A DNA stretch of 14,072 nt from a virus. Below, piece by piece: positions 1 to 12,877 of this stretch. Within the stretch, counting starts at the first letter, position 1. Each line of letters begins with the position of its first letter. The stretch is taken from positions 1 through 14,072 of the IMG/VR virus record IMGVR_UViG_3300043446_004346; one strand, 5' to 3'. The notes under the pieces are model-generated. The model ran no database searches. It was given only the letters and a program-made list of their open reading frames with translations, and was not told the origin of the DNA. The translations under genes were made by a program, and so were the position numbers.

Positions 1-127
1 GCGTCAGGTTCATATTTAATATAATAATAACCACCACCGTATCTATTAAACATTAAATAAATACCATCTGCCCTTTGTAGATACGAAAAAGGTCTGCCTA
101 CACTTGATCCTGACTGAAAAGTAAATA
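1..127. repeat. Terminal overlap, copy A (identical to 13946..14072); signature of a circular molecule
   Basis: Read directly: gcgtcaggttcatatttaat...ctgactgaaaagtaaata occurs at both ends with no mismatch. Offset 13945 nt. Confidence 0.95.
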
Positions 128-224
128 ATATTTTTCTAGGTTGTTCAGGTTTGTCAAATGCAGTCAATTGCTTTTTAGCAATCAAATTAACCTTAAGCAA
201 ATCACCAATGTTTATTTCAGGCAT
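1..224 (-). CDS. N-terminal part of a 132-aa ORF split by linearisation (MPEINIGDLLKVNLIAKKQLTAFDKPEQPRKILFTFQSGSSVGRPFSYLQRADGIYL...); continues at 13771..13945
   Basis: ATG at 224..222 lies 1 nt after the stop of the 226..921 ORF. The frame stays open to position 1 and joins the 13771..13998 track ORF once the 13945-nt offset is applied (399 nt in total). Confidence 0.7.
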   Translation of the reverse strand, partial: MPEINIGDLLKVNLIAKKQLTAFDKPEQPRKILFTFQSGSSVGRPFSYLQRADGIYLMFNRYGGGYYYIKYEPD

Positions 225-225
225 A

Positions 226-921
226 TTATTTCCTTAACATTTTAAGTAAGAAATTAAATTGCATTTTGTCATTTTCCGCCATTTCGCACAATAACAATAG
301 ATCATCCCCAAGTTGTTCATCACATTTTTTAAGTCTTTCAATTGCATTTGCAATTTTTTCATCATTGCTATCAGCTTCAACACCTGAAACGTGGGTAACT
401 TTTTGTTGTTGTTGCGGTGTAACTAAATTTGCTACTACATTCATAAGCATTTGTCTTACTGCAGGGTTACCCATTAAACCTGATAAAAGATTATTTTCGG
501 GTTCTTCTTCTTCCTCCTCATCTTCTTCCTCTAATTGCATTTGAAGTGCTGCAATTTGACTTTTAAGTGCAGTTATTTCATTTTGCATTTGTGGGTTATA
601 CATTCCAACTTGCTGCTGCATTAAACCATAATTTGATCTATTAAGTTGAAATGTGATTGTATTGTGTGCTTCTTTTTTCTTGCCTTTATCTCTTAATATG
701 ACAAGTAAATATGTGTTTGTGTTATCAGGGTTTGACATTACACTAGCCAGTGCGTCAGAAAGATGCTGCCTTCCTGTTATTTTATCATCACCATCATAAG
801 AAAACCTTCTGCAGGTTTCATCTATTTTATGTCCTGCATATACTGAATATGCAGCTTCATCATACTGATCATAATATGACAGTACACCTTCTGCGTCGTG
901 TAGTTCAGGTTTATAAGGCAT
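226..921 (-). CDS. Hypothetical acidic coiled-coil protein (231 aa), possible scaffolding or assembly factor
   Basis: Long ORF in the structural block. It has a heptad-like stretch NEITALKSQIAALQMQLEEEDEEEEEEPE, no TM segment and no enzyme motif I recognise. The function is a guess from position and composition. Confidence 0.7.
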   Translation of the reverse strand: MPYKPELHDAEGVLSYYDQYDEAAYSVYAGHKIDETCRRFSYDGDDKITGRQHLSDALASVMSNPDNTNTYLLVILRDKGKKKEAHNTITFQLNRSNYGLMQQQVGMYNPQMQNEITALKSQIAALQMQLEEEDEEEEEEPENNLLSGLMGNPAVRQMLMNVVANLVTPQQQQKVTHVSGVEADSNDEKIANAIERLKKCDEQLGDDLLLLCEMAENDKMQFNFLLKMLRK

Positions 922-938
922 ATATTATACATTTAAAA

Positions 939-956
939 GTGAAAGAAAAGTGATTA
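939..956 (-). promoter_or_regulatory. Conserved intergenic motif, copy 1 (plus-strand GTGAAAGAAAAGTGATTA; reads TAATCACTTTTCTTTCAC on the coding strand)
   Basis: 18-nt string identical to 3498..3515. It sits between the stop at 963 and the ATG at 921. Confidence 0.6.
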
Positions 957-962
957 ATCCTT

Positions 963-1388
963 TTAAGCATAATAAACACCAAAGCAAACACTATAGTTAC
1001 TTGCTGAAATACTACTGTATGCACTAGGTGTTAAAATGTATGACTTTGACCATACAATTTGCTGCCCTGCAAATGGAGTAATTGCAAATGCGTATGGATC
1101 AGCACTAGATGAATTTGAAGCAATTCTGTTAAGTTCTAGTACTGGTATTCGGTTTACACTTTCCTTGTCATTATAATAAAGTACCAAGTAAGTATTTTTC
1201 ATATTTGCTAGTGAAAGCAAAGGGTTACCACTTAAAATACTGTTTGTTAATACGTTGGGAGTATATGTAACTAGATTAAGCATTGATACAAAACGCAATT
1301 GCGGTTGATCTGCAAAATAAAATCTTGTACCTGTGCTGCTTTGTGGTACTATACACTCTATAAATTCATATTGATTAACCTTATTCAT
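963..1388 (-). CDS. Small beta-rich structural protein (141 aa); candidate single jelly-roll capsid or penton protein
   Basis: ORF directly downstream of the 222-aa capsid candidate. It has no TM and is rich in V/I/Y/T/N/S, with short alternating beta-like segments. The fold assignment is inference only. Confidence 0.65.
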   Translation of the reverse strand: MNKVNQYEFIECIVPQSSTGTRFYFADQPQLRFVSMLNLVTYTPNVLTNSILSGNPLLSLANMKNTYLVLYYNDKESVNRIPVLELNRIASNSSSADPYAFAITPFAGQQIVWSKSYILTPSAYSSISASNYSVCFGVYYA

Positions 1389-1460
1389 ATCGGTTTTTTA
1401 CAATTTTAAAAAATAGGGCTTCTATTTTTAACGTGCCATCGCCCATTGCAATACAATTTA

Positions 1461-2129
1461 TTAACGTACTGGAGTAACGTTTTGTGCCAAGATACCACGC
1501 ATAACCACAACAATTTTTGGTGCAGTTCCTGCCTGTAGTGTACCAATTGCTGCAGGAAGTTGAATAGTCAATTGATTATTCTTACTACCTACTAAAACAA
1601 TGTTTGGTTCTACTGGATAATATCCACTTTCAGTACCATCATTTTGATCAAGACCAGTGTTTGCAGTACCAGTGTAAATACCAGTTTGTGAAACACCTAT
1701 CCACAAATGACGATAAATATCCCATGAAGGCATGATCTGCCTGTTGTTTACAGTAAGTTGCAATTGACCATTGTAAAGGTTATACAATGCTGCAGATGCA
1801 CCAGCAGTACTGAAAACAGTTGCGTTTGGATATGTATAAAGTGGGAATGCAGTTGTAGTTGATGCTGCAGGTGCTGCAACAAAAATTCCAATTTGAGCAA
1901 CTACAAAAGCATCTTGCAAATTAAGCAAATTGTTTGTTACTGGTTGATAGTTATTTTGGTTGTCATTTACCAAAATGGGAATATGATATGAAGTTGTAGA
2001 AGTACTCATCAAAACTTCACTTCTAAGATAAGACTGGCTAAGAATAGCTTGATTAACGGAAAAACCTGCAGATTGTACAAGATTTTTTGCGTTATCAAAC
2101 ACTAACCTAGCATTCATTTGACTTGCCAT
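1461..2129 (-). CDS. Putative major capsid protein (222 aa, beta-rich, jelly-roll-like)
   Basis: It lies in the centre of the structural block and is flanked by the only sizeable intergenic spacers in that block. It has no TM and a beta-strand-rich composition (e.g. AFVVAQIGIFVAAP, LQLTVNNRQIMPSW, KIVVVMRGILAQN). No sequence family was recognised from memory. Confidence 0.6.
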   Translation of the reverse strand: MASQMNARLVFDNAKNLVQSAGFSVNQAILSQSYLRSEVLMSTSTTSYHIPILVNDNQNNYQPVTNNLLNLQDAFVVAQIGIFVAAPAASTTTAFPLYTYPNATVFSTAGASAALYNLYNGQLQLTVNNRQIMPSWDIYRHLWIGVSQTGIYTGTANTGLDQNDGTESGYYPVEPNIVLVGSKNNQLTIQLPAAIGTLQAGTAPKIVVVMRGILAQNVTPVR

Positions 2130-2164
2130 TTTCTTTTAGTTTATTTGTTTTAAAATTTTAAATA

Positions 2165-2587
2165 TTAATAATCTTCGTCCATTCCTGCCAAAACAGAAAG
2201 GTTATCAGGTTCATAACCTGCAACTACCGAAAGATCATCACCTGCCATAACTGAAACAGGAATTTCCATAGCTTGATCAATTGCACCTAGTACATTTGTT
2301 GCTTGTAGCAAACCAAGTCCACCTGCTGCAACCATTCCATCACCGATATTTTTACCAAATGATCCTTTAATGATGCTAGGGAAAAATGCACCAAGTGCAA
2401 TTACACCTGCTGACTTAATTTTTGCATCAAGATTTGGTAAAATCTTAGGTGAACTGGTGATCATTCTTGCTGCTGCTGCACCTACCACAAGTCCTGCTGC
2501 ATCCATCAAAAACGATTTTGAAATTTTTCCTACACTTCTTCTACGAGAACGGCGGTAAGATTTTGCCCTTTTTCTTCTTCTTGCCAT
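2165..2587 (-). CDS. Membrane protein with polyarginine N-terminus (MARRRKRAKSYRRSRRRS), Gly/Ala-rich TM core and acidic repeated C-terminus
   Basis: Hydrophobic segments GLVVGAAAARMI, AGVIALGAFFPSII and GMVAAGGLGLL. The C-terminal near-repeat is DDLSVVAG / DNLSVLAG. Confidence 0.7.
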   Translation of the reverse strand: MARRRKRAKSYRRSRRRSVGKISKSFLMDAAGLVVGAAAARMITSSPKILPNLDAKIKSAGVIALGAFFPSIIKGSFGKNIGDGMVAAGGLGLLQATNVLGAIDQAMEIPVSVMAGDDLSVVAGYEPDNLSVLAGMDEDY

Positions 2588-2631
2588 TTTTTTTAGTTTT
2601 TAATTGGTTTTGTGATAACTATATCAAGATT

Positions 2632-2886
2632 TTATTTATTATGAAATTTTCTCATAGCAGAAATGTTTTCTGCATAAAGTTTTAATTCCTTTTCAGATAC
2701 TTTTTTTAATTTAAAACTAGAATAACTTCCAATTATTCTAAATACTGCAGGTTTATAACTAACCTTAAAAGCATTAATACCTTCAATCAATGCTTCTTCA
2801 GTATCAGCAAAAAAATTCAGATCATCACGATATGGAAATTTAACTAAATATCCACCGTATTTTATGTTTACAACTATATTGTTCAT
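2632..2886 (-). CDS. Hypothetical protein (84 aa)
   Basis: ORF with a 4-nt overlap (2883..2886) with the upstream gene. No recognisable motif. Confidence 0.55.
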   Translation of the reverse strand: MNNIVVNIKYGGYLVKFPYRDDLNFFADTEEALIEGINAFKVSYKPAVFRIIGSYSSFKLKKVSEKELKLYAENISAMRKFHNK

Positions 2887-3206
2887 ACAAAAAATTTTAC
2901 TTTTCCTATTGATTTAAAACCACTTACTACTCTAATATTAACATTATGGCTTTTTGTGTCAGTGTGCATTTCACTTGATGACTTCTTTTTTCTAGCTTTT
3001 ACTTTTGTAGCTTTTACTGCACTTTTCTTTTTTACTTTACCAACACTAGCAACTTTCGATCCACTTCTTTTTTTGCTATATGATATTGCCCATGCTTGTT
3101 TTACTGCCTGTGCTTGTGTTAGCTTAGGGTTTTTCTTCCTTAATTTTTTGGCTTCCGCAACTACTGCTTTGAATTTTGCCCTAGCTGCTCGTTGTTTTGC
3201 AGTCAT
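2883..3206 (-). CDS. Lys-rich histone H1-like basic protein (107 aa), probable DNA-binding or condensing protein
   Basis: AKQRAARAKFKAVVAEAKKLRKKNPK...KVKKKSAVKATKVKARKKK. Very high K/A/R content and no TM. Confidence 0.7.
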   Translation of the reverse strand: MTAKQRAARAKFKAVVAEAKKLRKKNPKLTQAQAVKQAWAISYSKKRSGSKVASVGKVKKKSAVKATKVKARKKKSSSEMHTDTKSHNVNIRVVSGFKSIGKVKFFV

Positions 3207-3209
3207 TTT

Positions 3210-3491
3210 TTATTTTTTTAAAGTTTTTTTACACCAGTGTAACATTTCCTTTCCTCCCCACAATTGATAAGAAATATAACCACATTTAGACTGATCACCT
3301 ACATAAACTTTTGCTCTTTCTAAATATGAATATATTTTATTAACCATTTTTTCATTCAATCCTTTTTTGTTGATCAACATTCTAGCGGTTTTTACACCAG
3401 TACTGTTTTTACAACTTCCCTTTTCCATGTTTAATATAAGTCCTTCAATTGCGTTTTTTGTTGCCTTTACTGGGTAATTATAATACAACAT
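3210..3491 (-). CDS. Small conserved phage-type protein (93 aa) with an ...ARMLINKKGL...YLERA...YQLWGG...W signature
   Basis: ORF preceded by motif copy 2. From memory, the signature resembles a module seen at the N-terminus of head-maturation proteins of tailed phages. Not verified. Confidence 0.6.
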   Translation of the reverse strand: MLYYNYPVKATKNAIEGLILNMEKGSCKNSTGVKTARMLINKKGLNEKMVNKIYSYLERAKVYVGDQSKCGYISYQLWGGKEMLHWCKKTLKK

Positions 3492-3497
3492 ATAAAG

Positions 3498-3515
3498 GTG
3501 AAAGAAAAGTGATTA
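3498..3515 (-). promoter_or_regulatory. Conserved intergenic motif, copy 2 (GTGAAAGAAAAGTGATTA on plus)
   Basis: Identical to 939..956. It overlaps the stop codon of the 378-aa gene and ends 6 nt before the ATG at 3491. Confidence 0.6.
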
Positions 3516-4649
3516 TTTTTTTGCTATTAAATAAAGTGCAACTGCACCACCAACAATAAAAGGCAAATAGTTTTTCTTACCTTCTGCCTGATTAAATATT
3601 TTATCTACTTCACTTTGTTGCACCTGTTGTAATTTTTCCCCGCTTTCCAATTTTTTTTCAACTACATTTTTAACTTGTTTTGCAAGTACTCTTTTCCCAA
3701 CTTCCCCTACTTCCTTTACATCAATTCCAATTTTTCCTAGAAATTCTGCAACTTTTATAAGTATTGGTGCTGCAGTAACTGTAGCTGCTGCAGGTGCTGC
3801 TGCAACAACACCGATCTGTCCTTCGCTAGGAAATTCAATGTCATCACCAAGCAATCTCTTTTTTGCTGCACCTTGATTAACTTTTCTAAGAAGTTCATTT
3901 GCATCACCTCCTAAATTGTTCCACCAATCCACAGTAGCACTTGCCTTTGTGTCAAAAGCATTTTTTAACTTCGTTGCTAATCCCATAAAATTTAGTCCAA
4001 CTAGCAAAAGAAATGATCCCCTTGCAGGTGCTAAACTTATTCTTAATACTGTTTTTTTAACTGGTTTTGGTGCTGCAGCTTGTTTTGCTGCACCTATACC
4101 TGATACTTGATATAAAGGCATATTTGGCTTTTTATCTATTTTATGAAAATACGTTTTTCGTTCATTAAATCTGCTAAGTACTGGATCAACAAAATATTCA
4201 TTTCCGTTACGATCTTTTATTACTACAAAAACATGATGCGGAATTTCATCTAATAATTTATAACTAGCAAAACGAAAATTTAGATCATTATTGATCAATC
4301 CTTTTCTTTTTAAGCTATCCAGTACACCCATTGAAAACAAAGCATATCCTTTGCAATCAAATCCATCACTAGCAAGTGCAAGTAATGCACTAGGTGACAT
4401 GATCCGTTGCGACTGATCACTCTCTATTTTGTAACGGACATTTTGTTTAAGAAATTTGAAAACTTTCTTTGCAGTTTGAATGCCATCACCTGCGTAAAAA
4501 TCTTGACTAATTTTATCATATTCATTTTTATACTGGTTATGTGCTTTCAGCATTGCAGTCATAATATCAGGGACTTGTTGATCACGCACCAACAATTTAC
4601 GTTGTTTTTCAAATGGAGTAAGTCTGCCTAATAATGCAATGCGATCCAT
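3513..4649 (-). CDS. Papain-fold (transglutaminase-like) cysteine peptidase domain fused to C-terminal membrane anchors (378 aa)
   Basis: Cys-His-Asp pattern: GFDC99KGYALF, about 40 aa, then HH139VFVVIKDRNGNEYFVD155P, which matches the transglutaminase-core layout. TM-like segments LRISLAPARGSFLLLVGLNFMGL and NYLPFIVGGAVALYLIA. The ATG shares 1 nt with the upstream stop (TAATG). Confidence 0.75.
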   Translation of the reverse strand: MDRIALLGRLTPFEKQRKLLVRDQQVPDIMTAMLKAHNQYKNEYDKISQDFYAGDGIQTAKKVFKFLKQNVRYKIESDQSQRIMSPSALLALASDGFDCKGYALFSMGVLDSLKRKGLINNDLNFRFASYKLLDEIPHHVFVVIKDRNGNEYFVDPVLSRFNERKTYFHKIDKKPNMPLYQVSGIGAAKQAAAPKPVKKTVLRISLAPARGSFLLLVGLNFMGLATKLKNAFDTKASATVDWWNNLGGDANELLRKVNQGAAKKRLLGDDIEFPSEGQIGVVAAAPAAATVTAAPILIKVAEFLGKIGIDVKEVGEVGKRVLAKQVKNVVEKKLESGEKLQQVQQSEVDKIFNQAEGKKNYLPFIVGGAVALYLIAKK

Positions 4650-5083
4650 TAAAAAAGTTTTGATGAATATTCAAACGGAATTATCAAACCATCAATGTTT
4701 GTAGTTCCTTTAATCGTATATTTTGCACCTTTTGCAAATGCACCTTTTTCGGTTATTAATGACAATAAACCGATATTAGGTTTTGCAAATACACTCAAAT
4801 CGCTTTCACTTTTTGGTCGAATAGTTTGCACACCAAAACTTGCAAAATCAGCAACATATTTTCCGTTCACAAAAACTTCACCACTTATTGCGTTTATAGT
4901 TCCAGTAGTGTTTGTAGGGTTGATTACTTTGAAAATAATTTCTATTCGCTTTGAAATTCCACTTCCTGTTATGCGAATATTTTTAAAGGATAATTTTGTT
5001 TTGTCACCTAACTGCTTTTTACCATATAACCAGTATATGATGTAACCTGCAAACAGGTAAAAAAGCAAATTTTTGTTTTTCAA
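4649..5083 (-). CDS. N-terminally anchored LEA_2 / WHy-like beta-sandwich protein (144 aa), TTG start
   Basis: TM LLFYLFAGYIIYWLY followed by IEIIFKVINPTNTTGTINAISGEVFVNGKYVADF...YTIKGTTNIDGLIIPFEY, the typical LEA_2 pattern. The ORF has no ATG codon at all. The start codon at 5083..5081 is TTG. Confidence 0.65.
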   Translation of the reverse strand: MKNKNLLFYLFAGYIIYWLYGKKQLGDKTKLSFKNIRITGSGISKRIEIIFKVINPTNTTGTINAISGEVFVNGKYVADFASFGVQTIRPKSESDLSVFAKPNIGLLSLITEKGAFAKGAKYTIKGTTNIDGLIIPFEYSSKLF

Positions 5084-5100
5084 AATTTCTAACTTTTAAC

Positions 5101-5108
5101 CAAAACTA
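5101..5108 (-). promoter_or_regulatory. Candidate Bacteroidota -7 promoter box (TAGTTTTG = TAnnTTTG) for the late structural unit
   Basis: Exact match to the TAnnTTTG consensus, ending 17 nt upstream of the TTG start (5083). The nearest upstream TTTG is only 12 nt away, so the -33 element is poor. Confidence 0.35.
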
Positions 5109-5114
5109 TTGAAT

Positions 5115-5260
5115 ATTTTTCAAAAAAAAAAATATTAGGTCGGAAAAGTTGAAAAGAAGGTCAGTATCTAGGTTCACTTTCCCCTGTAGGGGGAAAGTGA
5201 CCTGCTGCCATCTTTCCAAGTGTTTTTTGACCTTACCAAAACTGACCTGACCTGTCCTTG
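5115..5260. promoter_or_regulatory. Origin-like or regulatory hub: A11 tract, GGTCR/TGACC iterons and a GC-topped hairpin
   Basis: A11 tract at 5122..5132. GGTCG at 5138 and GGTCA at 5159. TGACC at 5198, 5228, 5243 and 5248 (tgacctgacctg). Hairpin at 5171..5202. Confidence 0.5.
5171..5202. repeat. Inverted repeat or hairpin: TCACTTTCCCC (5174..5184), loop TGTAG, GGGGAAAGTGA (5190..5200); extends to GG/CC with one bulged T
   Basis: Perfect 11-bp stem read directly. Its arms contain the half-motif CACTTTC, which is related to the conserved intergenic motif. Confidence 0.8.
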
Positions 5261-5270
5261 TTTCATCTAA

Positions 5271-5290
5271 ATCACTTTTCTTTCACCTTT
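5271..5290 (+). promoter_or_regulatory. Conserved intergenic motif, copy 4, inverted orientation (ATCACTTTTCTTTCACCTTT on the plus strand)
   Basis: The 20-nt string equals the reverse complement of 3496..3515. It is the only copy that reads TCACTTTTCTTTCAC on the plus strand. Confidence 0.6.
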
Positions 5291-5291
5291 G

Positions 5292-5319
5292 ATAATAAAA
5301 AAAGGGCAAAATTGCCCTT
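5292..5319 (-). terminator. Intrinsic terminator of the early unit
   Basis: Stem AAGGGCA (5302..5308) / TGCCCTT (5313..5319). On the minus strand it is followed by TTTTTTTATT. It lies 29 nt downstream of the stop at 5348. Confidence 0.65.
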
Positions 5320-5347
5320 CTCTTGTTTTCCAGTGTTGATGCTAATA

Positions 5348-5539
5348 TCAAAAATCGTTTCTAAGGTACCTGCGGTGCGAAAATTTGCTGCTTTTTGCAA
5401 AATATAGGTTCATGTACCATGCACCCTCTTTTTCGGCAAATTTGGCAAAATTTTCAAGGTGTGAAATATTGCGGTATTTTCTAGGTCTTTTTTCCTTGTT
5501 AGGTTCAAAAAAGACAATTGCATTATAAATTTGTTTCAT
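5348..5539 (-). CDS. Hypothetical basic protein (63 aa)
   Basis: ORF bracketed by motif copy 3 upstream and a terminator downstream. No recognisable domain. Confidence 0.55.
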   Translation of the reverse strand: MKQIYNAIVFFEPNKEKRPRKYRNISHLENFAKFAEKEGAWYMNLYFAKSSKFSHRRYLRNDF

Positions 5540-5563
5540 TTTTAAATTTTTTCTAATTTTGAA

Positions 5564-5580
5564 TTGAAAGAAAAGTGGTT
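5564..5580 (-). promoter_or_regulatory. Conserved intergenic motif, copy 3 (degenerate: TTGAAAGAAAAGTGGTT on plus)
   Basis: The core TGAAAGAAAAGTG is shared with copies 1 and 2. It lies 25 nt upstream of the ATG at 5539. Confidence 0.45.
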
Positions 5581-5607
5581 TTTCGTTTTCGGAAGATCAT
5601 TTGTCGG

Positions 5608-5639
5608 TAGGCACTGGAAACAGTGCCTATTTTTGTTTG
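5608..5639 (+). terminator. Hairpin with plus-strand terminator geometry (TAGGCACTG-GAAA-CAGTGCCTA + TTTTTGTTTG), overlapping the ATPase stop codon
   Basis: 9-bp stem at 5608..5616 / 5621..5629 with a GAAA loop. The T-run follows only on the plus strand. On the minus strand it follows the TAG stop directly but lacks a U-tract. Confidence 0.4.
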
Positions 5640-6583
5640 TAAAGTTCACCGACTTTTATAATGTCTGACTTCTCAATCCACTCTTTTATAATCTTTTTTG
5701 CAGTTGTTGTGCTTTTACCTGTAAATTCTGCTAAATCATTTACAATATCATTATACTTTCTAGGTTCTACCAGTATGCGACTGATCAGCGACTTTTTTTC
5801 CATTCCGTAAATTAATCCTGTAGATTTTTTTTCAGTATGAATTTGTTGCCATTCATTGCCCTGATATTGTATGCTTATTGGATCGAAATCGTCAGTGCTT
5901 CTCAAAAATGTAGGATGTAGATCTATTGTTTTTTGCTCTTTATTTTTTTCAATCCTAAGTACTGCATTTGCTTTGCGGTCTAAATATGATCCTATATGTC
6001 CAATACTATTTTGATCTTTTTTACCCAAATGCAAAACGCAAATGATTAAAAGATCATGCACCTTAGTAATTTTTTTTAACCACTGAATAAGATAGAATGA
6101 CTGTTCAACACTGTTGAAATCACTGATTAAATCAAGTATTCCATCAATGACCAGTATTGAACAGTCCTTATTATCAGAAAGATAAATTTCAGTCATCTGC
6201 ATTATATCTGCAGGTTTATCCTCCCTAAATAAAAAACTGTCAAAATTGTGCGGAAAATGATCATACAACATTTGTTTCCTTGTACGATCTAAGTTTTTAT
6301 AGTAATCGTAATCACTACTTTCCGTATCAATATAGCACAGTCTTTTTCTATCTTTTGGAAAATTTAATTTCATTCCGAAAATATCCCATGTAGTGTAGGC
6401 AGTTGCAATGGCACCAGTTACAAATAATGTTTTACCTTGTTTTGGTAATCCACTAAAAACAACAATGCTTTGTGAAACACCTATTGTTTTACCATTGATA
6501 GTAAAAAGAATATTTTCATCTTTCGGTTGATAATCTTGCTTAAATTTTCTTTGTGATAGTTTCTCTTTAAGATCATTTGTCAT
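5627..6583 (-). CDS. RecA-fold RepA/DnaB-like (AAA_25-type) replication ATPase or helicase with C-terminal winged-helix domain (318 aa)
   Basis: Walker A GLPKQGKT and Walker B SILVIDGILD. LIICVLHLGKKD...GHIGS...ANAVLRIEK resembles the RepA-like sensor region. The C-terminus LAEFTGKSTTTAKKIIKEWIEKSDII is HTH-like. Confidence 0.8.
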   Translation of the reverse strand: MTNDLKEKLSQRKFKQDYQPKDENILFTINGKTIGVSQSIVVFSGLPKQGKTLFVTGAIATAYTTWDIFGMKLNFPKDRKRLCYIDTESSDYDYYKNLDRTRKQMLYDHFPHNFDSFLFREDKPADIMQMTEIYLSDNKDCSILVIDGILDLISDFNSVEQSFYLIQWLKKITKVHDLLIICVLHLGKKDQNSIGHIGSYLDRKANAVLRIEKNKEQKTIDLHPTFLRSTDDFDPISIQYQGNEWQQIHTEKKSTGLIYGMEKKSLISRILVEPRKYNDIVNDLAEFTGKSTTTAKKIIKEWIEKSDIIKVGELYKQK

Positions 6584-6586
6584 TGG

Positions 6587-6826
6587 TTACTTTTCTAAGA
6601 AACTGCAAAATTCCTCTGCTATTTGGAATGCCGCTTGAATAGCGAATTTACGATCTTCAACACTATCAACAATGTTATCATCACTGATTATCATTGCTTT
6701 TAGTATTTCCAGTGCCGCTACTTCCTGTTTTGTCATCCCTGCTAGAATGATCATTTGGTTGCTGAACTTGTCCATAAATTGCACTGGTTGTGCAGGTAAA
6801 TCCTTGTTTGTTTGTTGGCTTTGCAT
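6587..6826 (-). CDS. Hypothetical protein (79 aa; the true start may be an internal Met)
   Basis: ORF ending 3 nt before the ATPase ATG. An in-frame stop lies immediately upstream of its first ATG. It overlaps the zinc-ribbon ORF by 146 nt. Confidence 0.55.
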   Translation of the reverse strand: MQSQQTNKDLPAQPVQFMDKFSNQMIILAGMTKQEVAALEILKAMIISDDNIVDSVEDRKFAIQAAFQIAEEFCSFLEK

Positions 6827-6953
6827 CTTTTATTTTGTTTATGATTAAGCAATAAGGGCAAACAGTTGATCCATGTTTGCCCATGTGGTAAGTAACAGTA
6901 AAATACTTGTTACACTGGCAGCATCTCATTTGATCCATTTTTCTTTGCTGCAA
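6681..6953 (-). CDS. Zinc-ribbon protein (CxxC...CxxC: CCQCNKYF...VCPYC); the C-terminal half is low-complexity and overlaps the next gene
   Basis: The four-Cys ribbon lies in the first ~36 aa. The rest (KPTNKQGFTCTTS...TGSSGTGNTKSNDNQ) lies out of frame over 6681..6826. Confidence 0.5.
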   Translation of the reverse strand: MQQRKMDQMRCCQCNKYFTVTYHMGKHGSTVCPYCLIINKIKDAKPTNKQGFTCTTSAIYGQVQQPNDHSSRDDKTGSSGTGNTKSNDNQ

Positions 6954-7137
6954 CTAAATCCTCGTATTTGCAAAAATCATCCATTGCAAATTTGATAGAA
7001 TATTTGTGTAAGAAATACACTTTAAATAATCCATCATGCGGAATTTCTTTTTGGCTTAAAATGATGAAGGGATGTCCATTTGAAGTTTTTAGTGCTTCGC
7101 ACCAGTACTGCTTACCATTGTGTGAATACTTGTTCAT
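6910..7137 (-). CDS. Hypothetical protein (75 aa)
   Basis: ORF with a 4-nt overlap with the upstream gene (7134..7137). No recognisable motif. Confidence 0.55.
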   Translation of the reverse strand: MNKYSHNGKQYWCEALKTSNGHPFIILSQKEIPHDGLFKVYFLHKYSIKFAMDDFCKYEDLVAAKKNGSNEMLPV

Positions 7138-7415
7138 GCTAGGTTTGTTTTAAGTGATTGAATATTTAAATGTAGTTGATCTATTGTGTCCGCAAAAAGA
7201 CATTTTAATTCATTTTCCAGTACAAATGGCAAATCTGATTGATAAATAGTATAATGTTTACCGTCTGCAAAAAAATGTATTTGTATGTTATTAAACTGTT
7301 TTGCTTTGAGCAAATTTTGAAATTTTACAATCTTTTCTTCCTGAAATTGTATTTCATCAAACAATTCCTTTAAATCATTAAACATTGTGTATAAGTTTTT
7401 GCATTTGTAATTCAA
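7134..7415 (-). CDS. Hypothetical protein (93 aa as tracked; more likely 83 aa starting at 7385)
   Basis: Met11 at 7385 gives an ATGTTTAA-type 8-nt overlap with the upstream stop (7378..7380), which is more typical than a 38-nt overlap. Confidence 0.55.
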   Translation of the reverse strand: MNYKCKNLYTMFNDLKELFDEIQFQEEKIVKFQNLLKAKQFNNIQIHFFADGKHYTIYQSDLPFVLENELKCLFADTIDQLHLNIQSLKTNLA

Positions 7416-7581
7416 AATACCTACCGAATTGGAATGATATGTGCATTAAATGATGTTCATTTTCATAATACAGGATAAATTTAGTGTTATCCCCTACAAT
7501 TGTATCATGTCTGATATTGTAGTTTTTCAAAAATTGTTCCCATAACCTGTCTAGGTCATAAGCAATAACGATACTAGCCAT
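7378..7581 (-). CDS. Hypothetical protein (67 aa)
   Basis: ORF that starts 2 nt after the stop of the 39-aa micro-ORF. Confidence 0.55.
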   Translation of the reverse strand: MASIVIAYDLDRLWEQFLKNYNIRHDTIVGDNTKFILYYENEHHLMHISFQFGRYFELQMQKLIHNV

Positions 7582-7583
7582 AA

Positions 7584-7703
7584 TTAAAGTTTTTTTCTAA
7601 ATAATGAAATAATTTCTAGTGTTATCAGTGCCACTAGGTATAAAGGAATGCAGATTAGGATAAAATAAATTACTGATAATATCCAAGCTAATAACCTGAT
7701 CAT
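7584..7703 (-). CDS. Hydrophobic micro-protein, 39 aa (MIRLLAWILSVIYFILICIPLYLVALITLEIISLFRKKL), not in the ORF track
   Basis: Hand-translated. The TAATG junction couples it to the preceding 25-aa ORF. One long TM-like stretch and a basic C-terminus. Confidence 0.45.
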   Translation of the reverse strand: MIRLLAWILSVIYFILICIPLYLVALITLEIISLFRKKL

Positions 7704-7780
7704 TACATAAAATTATCTGCAAAACATATTGCTAAGGATAGCAAAAATAAGATCAGGACTTGTTTTTGTGTCTTTGTCAT
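7703..7780 (-). CDS. Hydrophobic micro-protein, 25 aa (MTKTQKQVLILFLLSLAICFADNFM), not in the ORF track
   Basis: Hand-translated. It is the first ATG after the candidate early promoter, and its stop overlaps the next ATG by 1 nt. Confidence 0.35.
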   Translation of the reverse strand: MTKTQKQVLILFLLSLAICFADNFM

Positions 7781-7816
7781 GTGGTTTTTGTTTTAGTTAA
7801 AAATCATTTGTCATGT

Positions 7817-7846
7817 CAATATTAAGATATTTTCCACATTTCCAAA
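7817..7846 (-). promoter_or_regulatory. Candidate Bacteroidota-type promoter of the early unit (TTTG, 18 nt, TAATATTG)
   Basis: On the minus strand: TTTG (7846..7843), an 18-nt spacer, then TAATATTG (7824..7817), one mismatch to TAnnTTTG. It lies just downstream of the late terminator. Confidence 0.4.
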
Positions 7847-7849
7847 AAA

Positions 7850-7882
7850 AAATATAAAAAAAGGGATCGTTGAAACGATCCC
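7850..7882 (-). terminator. Intrinsic terminator of the late structural and lysis unit
   Basis: Stem GGGATCGT (7863..7870) / ACGATCCC (7875..7882) with loop TGAA. On the minus strand it is followed by TTTTTTTATATTTTTTTTT. It lies 26 nt after the lysozyme stop. Confidence 0.75.
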
Positions 7883-7908
7883 CGCCCTATTCTCTCTGAA
7901 AATCAAAC

Positions 7909-8412
7909 CTATTTGAGAAATAATTCCTTTTCTAGCTGCCTTCTTTTAGTCAGTCCTGCACTTATTTTGCCGTTTATCTTATTCCACCTTAAAAACTGAT
8001 CAGCAACCTCTGATTTTGGCTTATTTTGGTTTAATAACCTAAGTAGTGTACTGCTTTGAAATGCACCTAATCCAATGTTATAAGCTAAACTGGTTAGTGC
8101 AGCTAATTGGTTAGCATTTATAGGTACTTTAATTAACTTACCTAGTGCGTATTGTCTTTTCTCAATATCCGTTTTTAGCCATCTTTCTGCAGTCGGTTTA
8201 TCAATTGTATCACCTTCTTTTATTGGTTTATTGGTGTCAGGGTTTATTGTAGTACCATAACCAATTGTCCAAATACCTGCGGTGTCAGGGTATGCCTTTA
8301 ATCTTTCGCCTTCAAAAACTTTTATAATATCAAATGCTTTCACCTTCTTTGCAGATAAGAGTAAAAAAATAACAATTGCAGCTATTATAATCCATTTCTT
8401 ATTGGACATCAC
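7909..8412 (-). CDS. GH24 (T4-type) lysozyme with N-terminal signal anchor (167 aa)
   Basis: FE34GERLKAYPD43TAGIWT49IGYG aligns residue for residue with the T4 lysozyme E11/D20/T26 motif. The N-terminus WIIIAAIVIFLLLSA is hydrophobic. Confidence 0.9.
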   Translation of the reverse strand: MMSNKKWIIIAAIVIFLLLSAKKVKAFDIIKVFEGERLKAYPDTAGIWTIGYGTTINPDTNKPIKEGDTIDKPTAERWLKTDIEKRQYALGKLIKVPINANQLAALTSLAYNIGLGAFQSSTLLRLLNQNKPKSEVADQFLRWNKINGKISAGLTKRRQLEKELFLK

Positions 8413-8560
8413 TGTCTTTTGCTAGTAATCCTGTAATAAGTATCCCAATACCTGAAACTACCTTTACCCAATCTTTTTGTGCAACACCATCACCAATTAG
8501 GGGTAATCCTGCAACTGATCCGAAAAAGCTAGTTTTAATGTTTTTTAGTATTCTTTTCAT
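8399..8560 (-). CDS. Holin-like small membrane protein, 53 aa (MKRILKNIKTSFFGSVAGLPLIGDGVAQKDWVKVVSGIGILITGLLAKDSDVQ), not in the ORF track
   Basis: Hand-translated. It overlaps the lysozyme start by 14 nt. The pattern KxxKT(S/T)xxG...G..LAKD resembles small proteins I recall next to endolysins in Bacteroidota phages. Not verified. Confidence 0.55.
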   Translation of the reverse strand: MKRILKNIKTSFFGSVAGLPLIGDGVAQKDWVKVVSGIGILITGLLAKDSDVQ

Positions 8561-8780
8561 CTTTTAATTTTTTATATTTTAAATAATTCAATGAAATAGT
8601 AACAATACAACTAACTGTAGATGCACTGGCAAATATGATCTTTGTCAGCTCGTCAATTTCTTGTAATCCAATTGCGGACAATAAAACGGTGCAGATTGTT
8701 GATACTACTGCAGGATCAGTTTGTTGCGTCATTGCTAGTTTCATCTTTTTGAAATTTTGCTGCAATAATGTTATAAGCAT
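8535..8780 (-). CDS. Two-TM class II holin-like protein (81 aa as tracked; probably 65-69 aa from Met at 8732 or 8744)
   Basis: TM1 AVVSTICTVLLSAIGL, TM2 IIFASASTVSCIVTISLNYL, basic tail KYKKLKDEKNTKKH. The upstream 54-aa ORF ends at 8716, which favours an internal start. Confidence 0.6.
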   Translation of the reverse strand: MLITLLQQNFKKMKLAMTQQTDPAVVSTICTVLLSAIGLQEIDELTKIIFASASTVSCIVTISLNYLKYKKLKDEKNTKKH

Positions 8781-8880
8781 TTATAACAGTTGCAGATTGA
8801 TCTAAAGTTGCAAAAACACCTTTACTTGTTGATAAGTCTAGTGCTGCTTTTAAAACTTCTAATGCTTGTTTTTCGTTCAT
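8716..8880 (-). CDS. Helical small protein, 54 aa (MNEKQALEVLKAALDLSTSKGVFATLDQSATVINAYNIIAAKFQKDETSNDATN), not in the ORF track
   Basis: Hand-translated. It fills an otherwise empty 111-nt gap and starts 11 nt after the stop at 8892. Confidence 0.5.
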   Translation of the reverse strand: MNEKQALEVLKAALDLSTSKGVFATLDQSATVINAYNIIAAKFQKDETSNDATN

Positions 8881-8891
8881 TTGTTCTTGTT

Positions 8892-9161
8892 TTATTGGTT
8901 AATAATTGTTAATCCTAAAGTAGTTGCAATATAATTATATGCGTAATCATTTGTTGTATAGTTATTATATTCAGGTTCACCCATTGTTACAGTACCAGTA
9001 GCTAGACTTTCACCCAATTGCCCTTGATTATCTGCACAAAGATTGTAACTAAATGATGCAAAACTTTCAAAGTTATCATAGTTTCCGTAACATGATAGCC
9101 ATACTGCTTCTGTTACTACACCATTATTCCAAATTTGTACTGGTTCAATTTGCTTTGCCAT
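8892..9161 (-). CDS. Hypothetical protein (89 aa) downstream of the spike gene
   Basis: ORF that overlaps the spike 3' end by 17 nt. It is Y/N-rich with no TM. It may be a spike accessory protein, judged by position only. Confidence 0.55.
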   Translation of the reverse strand: MAKQIEPVQIWNNGVVTEAVWLSCYGNYDNFESFASFSYNLCADNQGQLGESLATGTVTMGEPEYNNYTTNDYAYNYIATTLGLTIINQ

Positions 9162-12100
9162 ATAATTGTTTTAATTCTTCTATTTGTGCTTGTTGTTCTT
9201 GAATGGCTTTTATCAGCATTGGCACAAATACTGAATATTTTACTGATTTAGTAGTTGTTTCTAATTGATTTCCTTTTTTATCTATGTCAAAAGTTTCTTC
9301 AATCATTGAAGGAAATATTTCTTCTAATTCCTGCGCAATAACACCTATTTGTTTTATTTCACTACCAATTAAATTATAATTTCTAATTTTTACTTTCAAT
9401 AATTTATCAAGTTTAGGTGTTGCATCAATTATATTCTCTTTTAATTTTATATCAGATAAAGAACCATAACTATTATTTGCATTTTGGATATTACCATTAC
9501 CTATAATTTTGATATTAGTTGTACTACCAATATCACTATAACCAATAAAATGATTCCATCCAGTACCTGAAGCTGTATAAGACAAACTTGTTATTACACT
9601 TCCAGTAAAACTTGCAGTTGATTTTTCAGCATAATAAATAGATTCAGTAGTAGATGCGCCTTTGCTATATACTAATGCAGTTGGCGAACCACTCCCTATT
9701 CCGACATTGCCGCCCGAAGATATTCGGATGCGTTCGGTATCTGCAGTTGCAAATATTAATGGATAACTTCCGATTACATCTATTACTCCATATTCTCCAG
9801 CTGAATAAGAAGGACCTGTGTATCCTATAAGCATTTGTCTTGCTGCACTGTTCTTGAAATATAAAAGAGAAGTTGCAGTACTTACTGTATTTTCAATAGT
9901 TAATGTAGCATTTGCACCTGTCACACTTGAACTGAAGCTAGTTGAACCAGAATTATTTATTTGTAATAATGCTGCGTTATATGCCTGATTAACTATTCTT
10001 AATGGAGTTCCTGCCCCCAATTGAATATCGTTTACTGAACCTGCATAATTTAAATTAATAGCTAAAGGATAATTAGTAACAATTGTTGCATTCGACGTAA
10101 TATTTGAACTAAAAGTAGATGCTCCAGTTGCATCAATTAATAACCTCCTACCAAATGTACCACCTGACTTTGTATATAATTCAAAACCTCCTGATGTATT
10201 AAGATTAAATCCAAATGCCTTATCACCTGCAAAGTTTGCAAATTGTGCCTGTAATCCACTTCCGTAAGTATCTGACAAAGTATTTGATACCATGTAAGAA
10301 ACTGCTCTTTGTCCTGCACCTGTTGCATCAATCTTAAATGATCTACCTGCAATTAAACTTTCACCTGTTGCACCTTCTGAAGGGTTATTTGCTAGTACAC
10401 TTGCGTTGAATGATGCCTGACCATTGTTTTCCAATGTCATTGAAAGTGTAGCTGATCCACCTGCGGAAGTGTAAAATTTTAATCTTCCGTTTCCACTGTT
10501 AGCACCATCTAAGGTTGCAGCTATATAAGGGTTAGCATTTCCTAAACCAAAATTGATTGTTGTAATTGCTGCACCTGTTGAATAGTAATTATTTGTTAAT
10601 TGTAATGCAGTAAAAGACGCTGCATTACCTGTAAATATTGCATTGAGTCCATTCAATACACCAGTTAAAGTTGCTGCACCAACTACATCAAGTGCAACAC
10701 TAGGTGTTTTACCAATTCCCACATTTCCATAAAATCTTGCAGTTTTATCGTTTCTAGTCCAAAAAATGTCTGCACCGTTTGTATCTGCAACATTAAAGGC
10801 ATAATCACTAGCACCAGTTGAACTACCTTTTACATATAATGTTACGTTTGTAACTGGAGTATTATCCCCAAATACTGCCGATCCATTCTTTGCAATGCTA
10901 AATCTATCCACCCAAGATTGTGATACTGCAGATGCTGAACTTTGAAATCTTGCTAAATACAATGTAGTATCTGCGTCAGTTGATCTGACAAGTAAACCTT
11001 GTGAACTATCTTCTATATTTGTAACTGATAAGGCATAACCTGCCAAAGTTCCGCTAAATGCTGCAGTTGTACCATTTAATGCACCAGTTAATGTACCACC
11101 TGTTAAAGGCAAATATCCACTTAATGCACTGCCATAATTAGGTATATTTAATGTATTTCCTACAAATGTTGCAGCACCACTGCTACCAGTTGTTGTGAGT
11201 GATATTGTTGCCTGTTTGCTATTTAATTGTGTTTGTATAGCACTTGTAACACCTTTTACATAACTTATTTCAGTTAATGAAGGGTAAGTAGCGGTAGTTA
11301 GTGATCCTATTGTTGATCCAGTTGCGGTAAAATATGCTAATTCATTTATAGTACCTGTACCAGTTACAGGGTTAGTTAATGCTCCCTGATATTGCGGTAT
11401 ATTTAATGTATTTCCTACAAATGTTGCAGCACCACTCGTACCAGTTGTTGTAAGTGATATTGCATTTTGTTTGCTATTAAATGTACTCCAATCACTTGAT
11501 GAAAGTTTACCTGTATTTGTTGCAGATGCTACAGGTAAGTTAAATGTATGTGTACCACTGGAAGTTGAAATATTAAAATTAGTACCTGATGTACCAGTAA
11601 CTAAAAATTGTACTTGTTCAGTTGCACTATTTATTGCAGTAATTCCAGTACTAAATGTAGTTGCAATTTGTGCTAATCTTGTTGATTGGGTATAAAATGT
11701 TATTGTTCTACCATCATGTGTTACATAAAACCTTATTGCTAATCTATCAGTAAGTGTTAATACAGTTGCAGGTACTGCAATTGATGTATAATAAAGATCA
11801 ATAGAAGTACCACCAGTAATTACTTCGGGGTTTGATGAACTACTGGCAATTAATGAAAATGTAGTTCCATCGTATTTGTATAATTCAACATAAAAACTAG
11901 GGTTACCACCTGTTGAATTACTACTAAAATATGCTTGTATATTCCAGTTACCTGCAGGTATATTTAAAAGTGCAGGATCACCTGCATTTGTAATAAATTG
12001 TGCTATATATCCGTTAGCACTTATTGTAAAGTTTGCTGCAGTTCCAGTATTTGCAGTTTTACTCATTTGATAATAAGTATTTCCGCCAAAACTTCCCTGA

Positions 12101-12468
12101 CTTGTACCACCGTTCAAATAATAATTAACAGATGATCCACCTCCTGTATTTGGAAAATCTGCTAAAGTACCATCACCCCTAATATATTGTGAAACTGTAC
12201 CTGCACCAGTAACATTTAATGATCCACTACCTGTTATTGGTGAATTTGCTACATTAAATGCACTAGGCATTGATAAACCTACGGAAGTAACTGTACCTAC
12301 ATTACCTATTAAATCCCATGTTGAACCAGTATCCCTGTACCAAAGTTTTGTGTCAGTTGATACAAATAACCTGCCTGTTATACCTGCTGCAGGTCTATTT
12401 GCAAATACATCCGAATAAAACATCGGTGTACCAAACTGGTTCAATACTGAATAATCAACAACAATCAT
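9145..12468 (-). CDS. Receptor-binding spike or fibre (1107 aa) with C-terminal S74 intramolecular-chaperone autoproteolytic domain
   Basis: The C-terminus LS|SDIKLKENI...IGVIAQELEEIFPSMI...VKYSVFVPMLIKAIQEQQAQIEEL matches the Peptidase_S74 pattern (9148..9456). The body is long and G/S/T/N-rich and beta-helix-like. An 85-aa internal repeat carries SLTTTGxSGAATFVGNTLNIPxY. Confidence 0.85.
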   Translation of the reverse strand: MIVVDYSVLNQFGTPMFYSDVFANRPAAGITGRLFVSTDTKLWYRDTGSTWDLIGNVGTVTSVGLSMPSAFNVANSPITGSGSLNVTGAGTVSQYIRGDGTLADFPNTGGGSSVNYYLNGGTSQGSFGGNTYYQMSKTANTGTAANFTISANGYIAQFITNAGDPALLNIPAGNWNIQAYFSSNSTGGNPSFYVELYKYDGTTFSLIASSSSNPEVITGGTSIDLYYTSIAVPATVLTLTDRLAIRFYVTHDGRTITFYTQSTRLAQIATTFSTGITAINSATEQVQFLVTGTSGTNFNISTSSGTHTFNLPVASATNTGKLSSSDWSTFNSKQNAISLTTTGTSGAATFVGNTLNIPQYQGALTNPVTGTGTINELAYFTATGSTIGSLTTATYPSLTEISYVKGVTSAIQTQLNSKQATISLTTTGSSGAATFVGNTLNIPNYGSALSGYLPLTGGTLTGALNGTTAAFSGTLAGYALSVTNIEDSSQGLLVRSTDADTTLYLARFQSSASAVSQSWVDRFSIAKNGSAVFGDNTPVTNVTLYVKGSSTGASDYAFNVADTNGADIFWTRNDKTARFYGNVGIGKTPSVALDVVGAATLTGVLNGLNAIFTGNAASFTALQLTNNYYSTGAAITTINFGLGNANPYIAATLDGANSGNGRLKFYTSAGGSATLSMTLENNGQASFNASVLANNPSEGATGESLIAGRSFKIDATGAGQRAVSYMVSNTLSDTYGSGLQAQFANFAGDKAFGFNLNTSGGFELYTKSGGTFGRRLLIDATGASTFSSNITSNATIVTNYPLAINLNYAGSVNDIQLGAGTPLRIVNQAYNAALLQINNSGSTSFSSSVTGANATLTIENTVSTATSLLYFKNSAARQMLIGYTGPSYSAGEYGVIDVIGSYPLIFATADTERIRISSGGNVGIGSGSPTALVYSKGASTTESIYYAEKSTASFTGSVITSLSYTASGTGWNHFIGYSDIGSTTNIKIIGNGNIQNANNSYGSLSDIKLKENIIDATPKLDKLLKVKIRNYNLIGSEIKQIGVIAQELEEIFPSMIEETFDIDKKGNQLETTTKSVKYSVFVPMLIKAIQEQQAQIEELKQLYGKAN
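11141..11462. repeat. Two 67-nt near-identical direct repeats (11141..11207 and 11396..11462), period 255 nt, inside the spike gene
   Basis: ggtatatttaatgtatttcctacaaatgttgcagcaccact(g/c)(c/g)taccagttgttgt(g/a)agtgatattg, read directly. It encodes the duplicated 85-aa module. Confidence 0.85.
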
Positions 12469-12866: not shown

Positions 12867-12877
12867 AGTATTTTATT

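Follow-up and report, generated by a model that had tools for sequence, protein, structure and literature searches.

The stretch of DNA analysed here, which we call the window, is 14,072 nt long (positions 1 to 14,072 of IMG/VR record IMGVR_UViG_3300043446_004346) and is a circularly closed contig with a terminal overlap of 127 bp (1-127 = 13946-14072) and a unique genome of ~13,945 bp. It represents a small circular phage of Bacteroidota, with a G+C content of ~33% and all plausible genes on the minus strand. Read along the coding strand, small early genes (7581 to 6587) are followed by the gene of an ATPase (6583-5627), an open reading frame (ORF) of 63 amino acids (aa; 5539-5348) and a non-coding stretch (5347-5084), after which membrane, capsid-like, fibre and lysis genes continue round the circle to 7909. 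The non-coding stretch holds the element that is our subject, a GC-topped palindrome between two sets of short repeats that point in opposite directions. The element is a conserved cis-acting DNA structure, and at slightly better than even probability we read it as the replication origin for a self-loading helicase-initiator.

At the centre lies the palindrome (5170..5203, assigned to no strand), a predicted hairpin whose 14 pairs are interrupted by one bulged base and whose C-run/G-run top carries a loop of 5 nt. It includes the perfect 11-bp stem noticed in an initial annotation of this DNA (5174-5184 paired with 5190-5200 around the loop TGTAG), and its outer ends are themselves repeat-like, with GGTTCA on one side and TGACC on the other, the TGACC at 5198 being the base of the hairpin arm. 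The upstream repeat array (5228..5257, minus strand) reads GGACA, GGTCA, GGTCA, GGTAA and GGTCA on the coding strand; on the opposite strand these include the TGACC words at 5228, 5243 and 5248 and the degenerate copies TGTCC at 5253 and TTACC at 5233. The downstream array has the opposite polarity (5138..5163, minus strand), with TGACC at 5159-5163 and CGACC at 5138-5142 on the coding strand, corresponding to the GGTCR words GGTCA at 5159 and GGTCG at 5138, and its middle site is degenerate in the window's clade. All of these words, as well as an A11 run at 5122-5132, are present as that annotation described them. Its statement that they lie in the largest non-coding region is approximate, the gap that holds the element (5084-5347) measuring 264 nt versus 327 nt for 7582-7908, a gap in which two possible mini-ORFs (25 and 41 aa) precede the first early gene.

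This cluster of features is far from what chance would produce. A stem of at least 11 perfect pairs with a loop of 3-8 nt arose in 12 of 200 dinucleotide-preserving shuffles (6%), and the earlier estimate of far fewer than one such stem by chance is in line with the resulting figure of ~0.06 per genome. The unique 13,945-bp genome contains 11 GGTCA/TGACC words, five of them inside 150 nt at the element, a density reached by none of 200 shuffles of the same kind; this is the only such cluster in the genome, and the early promoter region lacks one. When 5150-5225 is folded as DNA, it reaches -18.5 kcal/mol (z = -5.5), and none of 200 shuffles folds as well.

The same arrangement recurs throughout a large uncultivated family of phages with circular genomes of ~12-14 kb, to which this phage belongs. 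A scan of viral contigs for the ATPase returned 80 loci at 58-72% identity, on contigs mostly of 12-13.7 kb. Synteny is kept at 66 of the 80, in the order ATPase gene, optional insertion, 63-aa ORF, gap of ~270 nt and 144-aa gene, and some 70 related phage genomes from metagenomes share the same order of modules, at ATPase identities as low as 46%. In the window and 66 related loci the element lies ~280-1,500 nt past the ATPase stop codon, after the 63-aa ORF and a terminator. We aligned 63 unique gaps (the window and 62 relatives), and the full series of modules is kept in all 63 of these co-directional gaps. On the coding strand the series comprises a classical terminator (GGGGCAATTTGCCCC followed by a T-run), a box AAAGGTGAAGGAAAAGTGA, direct GGTCA repeats (a pair with a period of 10 nt, or four copies in L072 and L074, plus a third farther along), the hairpin, three TGACC repeats, and a T-rich stretch ending in TAnnTTTG ~20 nt ahead of the start codon. 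In the window the early intrinsic terminator is found at 5293..5319 (minus strand; AAGGGCAATTTTGCCCTT and then a T-run, with GGGGCAATTTGCCCCTTTT in relatives), and the box AAAGGTGAAAGAAAAGTGATTT at 5269..5290 (minus strand, given as the coding strand) is near-invariant in the alignment and holds a GGTGA/GGTCA repeat-like word.

The polarity of the repeats is nearly absolute. Across 61 relatives, 183 GGTCA and four TGACC words lie upstream of the hairpin, and 139 TGACC and two GGTCA words downstream of it. Their offsets are fixed as well, at 54, 44 and 28 nt ahead of the hairpin for GGTCA and at 7, 19 and 29 nt past it for TGACC, and the extended repeat has the consensus (A/T)GGTCA(G/A)TTT. Each side typically has three repeats, and the hairpin base and the upstream box add further iteron-like words. 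From array to array, hairpin included, the element of the window measures ~120 bp and those of relatives reach ~135 bp; counting the GGTGA box upstream, the module shows ~150-160 bp of strict dyad symmetry.

More distant genomes extend the pattern. Distant loci at 46-52% ATPase identity (L086-L090) show the same succession from terminator through repeats, hairpin and opposed repeats to T-rich promoter, and in two of them (L087 and L090) the sequence of the hairpin is entirely different; the whole module in distant genomes consists of nested inverted repeats centred on the hairpin. In L091 and L092 (46% ATPase identity) the early and late modules are divergent and the element stands in the spacer between them, where it adjoins the late genes, upstream of the late promoter in L092. 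Relative to the ATPase gene it is then ~1.2 kb upstream in L092 and several kb away in L091. These two genomes and the contig of P0119, all at ~45% ATPase identity, carry their early and structural modules on opposite strands, and in their AT-rich spacers TGTATACA palindromes, which are likely operators, lie beside the early genes. ATPase matches from human-gut records named 'Bacteriophage sp.' were dropped as comparators on account of their higher G+C content and lack of synteny; in the one gut record that was read (L081), an apparent primase-type gene follows the ATPase gene, as judged by eye.

Many relatives also carry ~0.1-1.2 kb of extra DNA at a hot spot between the ATPase stop codon and a second hairpin described below (among them L003, L007, L011-L013, L016, L022, L025, L038, L043, L057, L063, L067, L076 and L077), and visual inspection showed extra ORFs in L059 and L061. 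Downstream of these insertions the repeat-hairpin module still accompanies the 63-aa ORF. Contig L043 has an inverted duplication (~9160-9418), turning back on itself where the early terminator lies, and the 3' end of contig L035 falls inside the central hairpin. Clustering of contig ends within the element was rejected as a signal, a similar clustering upstream of the ATPase gene pointing to an effect of short-contig sampling.

Conservation of the hairpin is one of structure and not of sequence. Relatives have 34 distinct hairpin sequences, built on a conserved base, GG(A/T)CA ... TG(T/A)ACC, and a conserved top of C-run, loop near TANA and G-run, between which about six pairs vary freely. 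In the closest relative, L088 (82%), the stem differs from that of the window by paired changes. Predicted pairs are Watson-Crick in 527 of 531 cases (99%), and the remaining four are G-T pairs that all close the loop. Every hairpin has a one-base bulge, always on the coding-strand 3' arm; loops are 3-5 nt long (TAAA, TAC, TATA, CTACA and others), and the hairpin measures ~32-50 nt in relatives. RNAalifold reports compensatory changes at seven of 13 pairs. In a model-guided alignment of 61 sites, 94.2% of cells are paired versus 81.9% in shuffles (none of 500 as high) and 34-60% in slid controls, and the covariation score is 0.312 versus 0.097 (again none of 500 as high). A covariance model finds exactly one site per genome and recovers the site in distant genomes outside its training set. 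The conservation of iterons and hairpin that a functional reading calls for is thus strong, and the hairpin adds compensatory change to it.

Mean pairwise identities in the main clade place these changes on a scale: 0.79 and 0.85 for the two flanks, 0.65 for third codon positions of the ATPase gene and 0.495 for the interior of the stem. The flanks, with their higher identity, are thus under purifying selection, and the interior of the stem, divergent with its pairing kept, is free, or even driven, to change as long as it remains paired. Similarity of the stem interior correlates weakly with everything tested (rho <= 0.19), and no partner was found among these.

A hairpin that is GC-rich, has compensatory changes and lies 3' of an operon might be taken for an RNA element (a terminator, an attenuator or a small RNA hairpin). 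We regard this as very improbable. The hairpin is followed by no T-run on either strand, and a canonical terminator stands ~100 nt upstream; ARAGORN detected no tRNA or tmRNA, and Rfam 15 had nothing to match the region even at an E-value threshold of 1; and wobble pairing is confined to the four G-T pairs, all beside the loop. The position of the hairpin, after a strong terminator and before the next promoter, and the lack of both a T-run and wobble pairs argue for an element that acts at the level of DNA rather than RNA. The copies in L091 and L092, in a spacer between divergent modules and, in L092, ahead of the late promoter, are likewise hard to fit with a transcript-borne role.

If the element acts as DNA, it could do so in single-stranded form, as a rolling-circle nick-site origin, a site for complementary-strand priming or a packaging signal. 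A structure-conserved hairpin with a constant bulge is typical of single-stranded hairpins recognised by proteins, the genome is small and circular with its genes on one strand, neither a terminase nor an FtsK/HerA-type packaging ATPase was detected among the scanned ORFs, and a conserved 222-aa protein has weak jelly-roll capsid matches. Conversely, searches of Pfam, PHROGs and NCBIfam returned no HUH, Rep_trans or other rolling-circle Rep for the scanned ORFs, loops of 3-5 nt are short of the ~9-13 nt of nick-site loops and hold no conserved nonanucleotide, repeats of opposed polarity flank the hairpin on both sides where a nick-site origin would have iterons on one, and some relatives code on both strands. 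Moreover, pairing that is almost exclusively Watson-Crick fits a duplex palindrome that folds on both of its strands. We therefore consider a single-stranded role improbable, and the nick-site hairpin of the initial annotation in particular is made unlikely by the short loops, the lack of an HUH Rep among the scanned ORFs and the repeats on both sides.

The inverted repeat with its short spacer, the conserved inner CCCC-TANA-GGGG and the flanking repeats, which could be accessory sites, would also be compatible with site-specific recombination, either for multimer resolution by the host Xer system or for attachment. Recombination sites with arm-type sites bear a loose resemblance to the element. 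A host recombinase would need conserved arms, yet the interiors of the arms are hypervariable. Moreover, no integrase or recombinase was detected among the scanned ORFs, and we found no integrated copy; a search of bacterial and archaeal genomes matched only one 5.7-kb contig, which belongs to a Bacteroidetes metagenome-assembled genome. This explanation appears quite improbable to us.

The candidate protein to act at the element, if it is an origin, is the ATPase (318 aa; 5627..6583, minus strand), for which a RecA/DnaB-type helicase core and a C-terminal winged helix (residues ~263-317) are predicted. It has a weak match to AAA_25 and a match to a PHROG primase/helicase family. In an AlphaFold2 model (predicted local distance difference test score, pLDDT, of 89), the chain has a RecA-type core and ends in a winged helix made up of three helices and a beta-hairpin. 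Fold matches in the PDB include RadA/Sms helicase, KaiC, RadA/Rad51 and DnaB, and those in BFVD are mainly phage primase-helicases and replicative helicases; a profile search with the ATPase alignment against PDB sequences gave no match. The best viral fold match is a same-sized protein of Olleya phage Harreka_1, encoded next to an annotated 'replication protein'. As judged from these models, the ATPase would be the only recognisable replication protein of the phage, a predicted replicative helicase of the RecA/DnaB type with a winged helix. Scans of Pfam, PHROGs and NCBIfam found no polymerase, primase, HUH Rep, integrase or recombinase; they took in every ORF of more than 100 aa and left out two small ORFs (~75-85 aa).

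Co-variation points to the same protein. We compared the repeat flanks with protein distances in the main clade by Mantel tests, for which two early ORFs lacked enough homologues. The best co-variation of all proteins tested is that of the winged-helix domain of the ATPase (residues 255-318; rho 0.39, p = 0.0005); within the same protein, values are lower for residues 101-250 (rho 0.26, p = 0.0055) and 1-100 (rho 0.19, p = 0.02). The genes directly adjacent to the element show little of this (63-aa ORF, rho -0.04, p = 0.69; 144-aa gene, rho 0.12, p = 0.11), and values are similarly low for a 79-aa early protein (rho 0.03, p = 0.35) and the 222-aa capsid-like protein (rho 0.06, p = 0.29); a 378-aa late protein reaches rho 0.23 (p = 0.006). 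These correlations indirectly support the idea that repeats and winged helix are functionally linked. The ATPase is thus a candidate initiator-helicase that may bind the repeats. The suggestion that the repeats are iterons for the winged-helix ATPase, made from the window alone, gains from both the predicted fold and the co-variation of the flanks, and both are indirect.

On its other side the element meets the late promoter. In Flavobacteriia, sigma-A promoters have TAnnTTTG as their -7 box (PMC9723704), and this motif is near-invariant across the relatives; the late promoter as a whole is of the Bacteroidota type, TTTG ... TAnnTTTG. In the window the T-rich late promoter region extends over 5084..5137 (minus strand), with the A11/T11 run at 5122-5132 and the -7 box TAGTTTTG at 5101-5108. 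The A11 run had been put forward as a possible unwinding tract. It is more aptly seen as part of the promoter, since it aligns with TTTGTTTTTTTG, the -33/spacer part, and the homopolymer is not kept in relatives. It does sit in an AT-rich stretch that could melt: 5058-5137 ranks fourth to fifth least stable among the 60-80-bp windows of the genome, and the T-rich late promoter region (5084-5137) is a candidate DNA-unwinding stretch.

This neighbourhood raises the question of whether the element is instead a control region of the late promoter, in which GGTCA/TGACC would bind a phage activator or repressor that times the switch from early to late expression and the palindrome would be architectural, a role that is also compatible with that of an origin. 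The element lies between the early terminator and the late promoter and is always immediately upstream of the latter, even where the early module is inverted, and the final TGACC directly adjoins the -33 element. In L091 and L092 the element has stayed with the beginning of the late operon, a position that is compatible with a transcriptional role. However, a dyad of ~150-160 bp far exceeds what a sigma-A-type (TAnnTTTG) promoter usually needs, and the upstream array stands over 100 bp away from the start site. Binding of a regulator to duplex DNA would leave the kept pairing of the hypervariable stem unexplained, the early promoter region is without a repeat cluster, and the flanks co-vary with the winged helix and with no small early protein tested. 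The operator role that had been offered as an alternative therefore keeps its point about the constant vicinity of the late promoter and meets all of these objections, and we rate it as unlikely.

We hypothesize instead, as the reading introduced at the outset, that the element is a replication origin at which a RecA/DnaB-type ring helicase would bind the GGTCA pentamers through its C-terminal winged helix. The opposed directions of the repeats on the two sides of the palindrome suggest that two helicase assemblies could load symmetrically. Opening of the duplex would let each strand of the palindrome fold into a hairpin, and the resulting cruciform might stabilise the open state and offer a junction of single- and double-stranded DNA for helicase entry or host priming, with the T-rich late promoter stretch as the easiest nearby DNA to melt. 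Binding, melting, hairpin extrusion and the start of replication are all inferred steps of this scheme. The initial annotation had also favoured an origin; conservation in relatives sustains that part of its reading, and neither of its proposed accessories fares well, the A11 tract being more aptly seen as part of the late promoter and the nick-site hairpin being unlikely.

Several observations weigh against an origin. The palindrome at the centre is GC-topped, unlike the AT-rich core of origins of the Staphylococcus aureus pathogenicity island (SaPI) type, and the genome has regions less stable than 5058-5137. In the divergent relatives the element stays beside the late promoter and not after the ATPase gene; with the last repeat abutting the -33 element, a transcriptional role fits this as well. 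The gradient of co-variation along the ATPase may partly reflect physical linkage, and the recognition helix shows no clear change in a clade with apparent GGTAA repeats, which were assigned by eye. GC skew is compatible with an origin and not diagnostic of one. The detrended cumulative minimum falls within ~2% of the genome length of the hairpin in eight of 15 circular genomes of relatives, and within 11% in 12 of the 15; the maximum lies at ~0.25 of the circle and not at 0.5, a profile that gene composition can explain. Both cumulative and third-codon-position skew are dominated by gene composition and were not used as evidence. A DnaA-dependent origin in particular finds no support, DnaA boxes (TTATCCACA) being not enriched, with six one-mismatch matches in the window versus 5.7 expected and none within 5000-5650.

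Two further structures lie close to the element. An inverted repeat of 13-17 nt brackets the 63-aa ORF and the early terminator, its copies separated by ~280 nt. The left one (IR-L, 5565-5581) has the coding-strand sequence AAACCACTTTTCTTTCA; the right one (IR-R, 5269-5285), which lies inside the conserved box, has TGAAAGAAAAGTGATTT. From clade to clade they vary in concert (TTTTCTTT, TTTCCCTT, TTTCCTTT, TTTCTTTT), and they may be paired protein sites or serve in DNA looping or long-range pairing. Secondly, a structure-conserved hairpin at 5600-5640 (TAGGCACTG-TTTC-CAGTGCCTA) includes the stop codon of the ATPase gene in its base. Relatives have different, compensating stems at this site, some with A-C mismatches. 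This second hairpin is followed by a near-invariant CTTGACAAATGATC (CCGACAAATGATC in the window), with no T-run on the coding strand after it.

The basic 63-aa ORF (5348..5539, minus strand) is the last early gene and is kept in relatives; tblastn matched it in 74 of the 80 loci, it always lies just upstream of the element in co-directional genomes, and scans of Pfam, PHROGs and NCBIfam found no family match. Early ORFs other than the ATPase gene encode 63-93 aa. The first late gene (144 aa; 4649..5083, minus strand) starts with TTG, and its product has an N-terminal hydrophobic segment that is likely membrane-spanning and a weak LEA_2 match under the Pfam cutoff. The gap at 7582-7908 is presumably the early promoter region; it has a terminator after the lysozyme gene (GGGATCGTTTCAACGATCCC and a T-run) and then an AT-rich stretch, and no repeat cluster. 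The stretch 54-225 looks intergenic and is coding, an ORF from the ATG at 223 crossing the junction into 13998-13771.

Among the structural genes, the 222-aa protein (1461-2129, minus strand) is very strongly conserved, at ~70% identity family-wide, with more than 1,500 metagenomic homologues. The only matches of its model, which is of medium confidence (pLDDT 66), are weak ones to viral jelly-roll capsid proteins (best E = 0.002), and on this basis we did not accept it as a capsid protein by structure. A fibre protein of 1107 aa with a Peptidase_S74 chaperone domain is also encoded. The weak jelly-roll matches, together with many predicted membrane proteins and the lack of a detected terminase, suggest a tail-less and possibly membrane-containing virion. 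The whole window had no megablast match among 50,697 phage records, and no cultured relative turned up in that collection; searching the literature for an account of the family likewise yielded nothing pertinent.

A compact cis-acting site with a candidate partner protein makes replication in this family directly testable. The minimal replicon would be the ATPase gene plus ~270 bp, which, if it works, could seed a small vector for Flavobacteriia. Moreover, the element is a natural example of selection on DNA secondary structure in an apparently untranscribed stretch. More tentatively, and at a probability well below even, we propose that this may be the first described type of origin for a self-loading helicase-initiator of the RecA/DnaB fold (superfamily 4, SF4-like), in which opposed pentamer arrays would position two helicase assemblies around a cruciform-forming palindrome, the variable stem could act as a replicon-specific 'barcode' for initiation specificity or incompatibility among co-infecting relatives, or else be kept perfect by intrastrand template switching, and the site, by abutting the late promoter, could couple late transcription to replication.

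Parts of such a design are known from other replicons. In the core origin of SV40, opposed GAGGC pentanucleotides position two helicase hexamers head to head; beside the pentamers stand an AT tract and an imperfect palindrome, the latter of which melts, and the origin lies between the early and late transcription units. The element resembles it in its opposed pentamers and, in L091 and L092, in its place between early and late modules. It differs in that SV40 is a eukaryotic virus with a superfamily 3 (SF3) helicase and another DNA-binding domain, its pentamers lie inside the palindrome, and it has no hypervariable stem. The plasmid RSF1010 has a RecA-fold hexameric helicase of the AAA_25 kind (RepA), an iteron binder (RepC), a primase (RepB') and iterons that are 20-bp direct repeats. 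Its oriV contains two separate 40-nt hairpins, ssiA and ssiB, on opposite strands (PMC8567376). Common to both systems would be a RecA-fold helicase of the AAA_25 kind and iterons combined with hairpin-forming inverted repeats that act after duplex opening, whereas the phage has no primase among its scanned ORFs and one central palindrome instead of two hairpins.

The nearest parallels lie elsewhere. SaPI Rep helicases bind penta- or hexanucleotide iterons via a winged helix, and the iterons form two opposed sets downstream of rep (PMC9371898). As in SaPIs and other phage-inducible chromosomal islands (PICIs), the putative initiator here is a hexameric-type helicase with a C-terminal winged helix (predicted in our case), the iterons, of which origins of that type have six to twelve, are short and form two opposed sets, and no separate loader is known. 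The class of helicase differs, SF3/AAA+ for SaPI Rep and RecA/DnaB-type (AAA_25-like) for the predicted fold of the phage ATPase. SaPIs have an AT-rich stretch at the centre, where the phage has a structure-conserved palindrome with a GC-rich top and its AT-rich stretch lies off to one side. The SaPI origin is close to the 3' end of rep; here a 63-aa ORF and a terminator stand between gene and site, and in some relatives the site is away from the ATPase gene altogether. If our reading is true, the design of opposed short iterons and a self-loading helicase would extend from SF3 helicases (SaPI, polyomavirus) to a RecA-type helicase.

The putative origin of the pRN1 plasmid family is a stem-loop located downstream of the orf56/orf904 replication operon, after the rep terminator, variable in sequence and conserved in structure, with conserved flanks (PMC4234260). 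Integrity of its stem is required, and a mutation that restores pairing rescues replication (PMC4234260). The phage element shares with it the succession of a terminator and a stem-loop of variable sequence and conserved structure between conserved flanks, as well as a replication protein that combines a helicase with a winged helix. In contrast, the stem-loop of pRN1 is ~100 nt long with a large loop, versus ~32-50 nt with a 3-5-nt loop and a conserved bulge here; its protein joins a prim-pol domain to an SF3 helicase, whereas the ATPase has no prim-pol domain and a RecA-type fold; and opposed iteron arrays are not described in pRN1. Judged by analogy, the best fit is that the element combines the SaPI and pRN1 designs with a different class of helicase.

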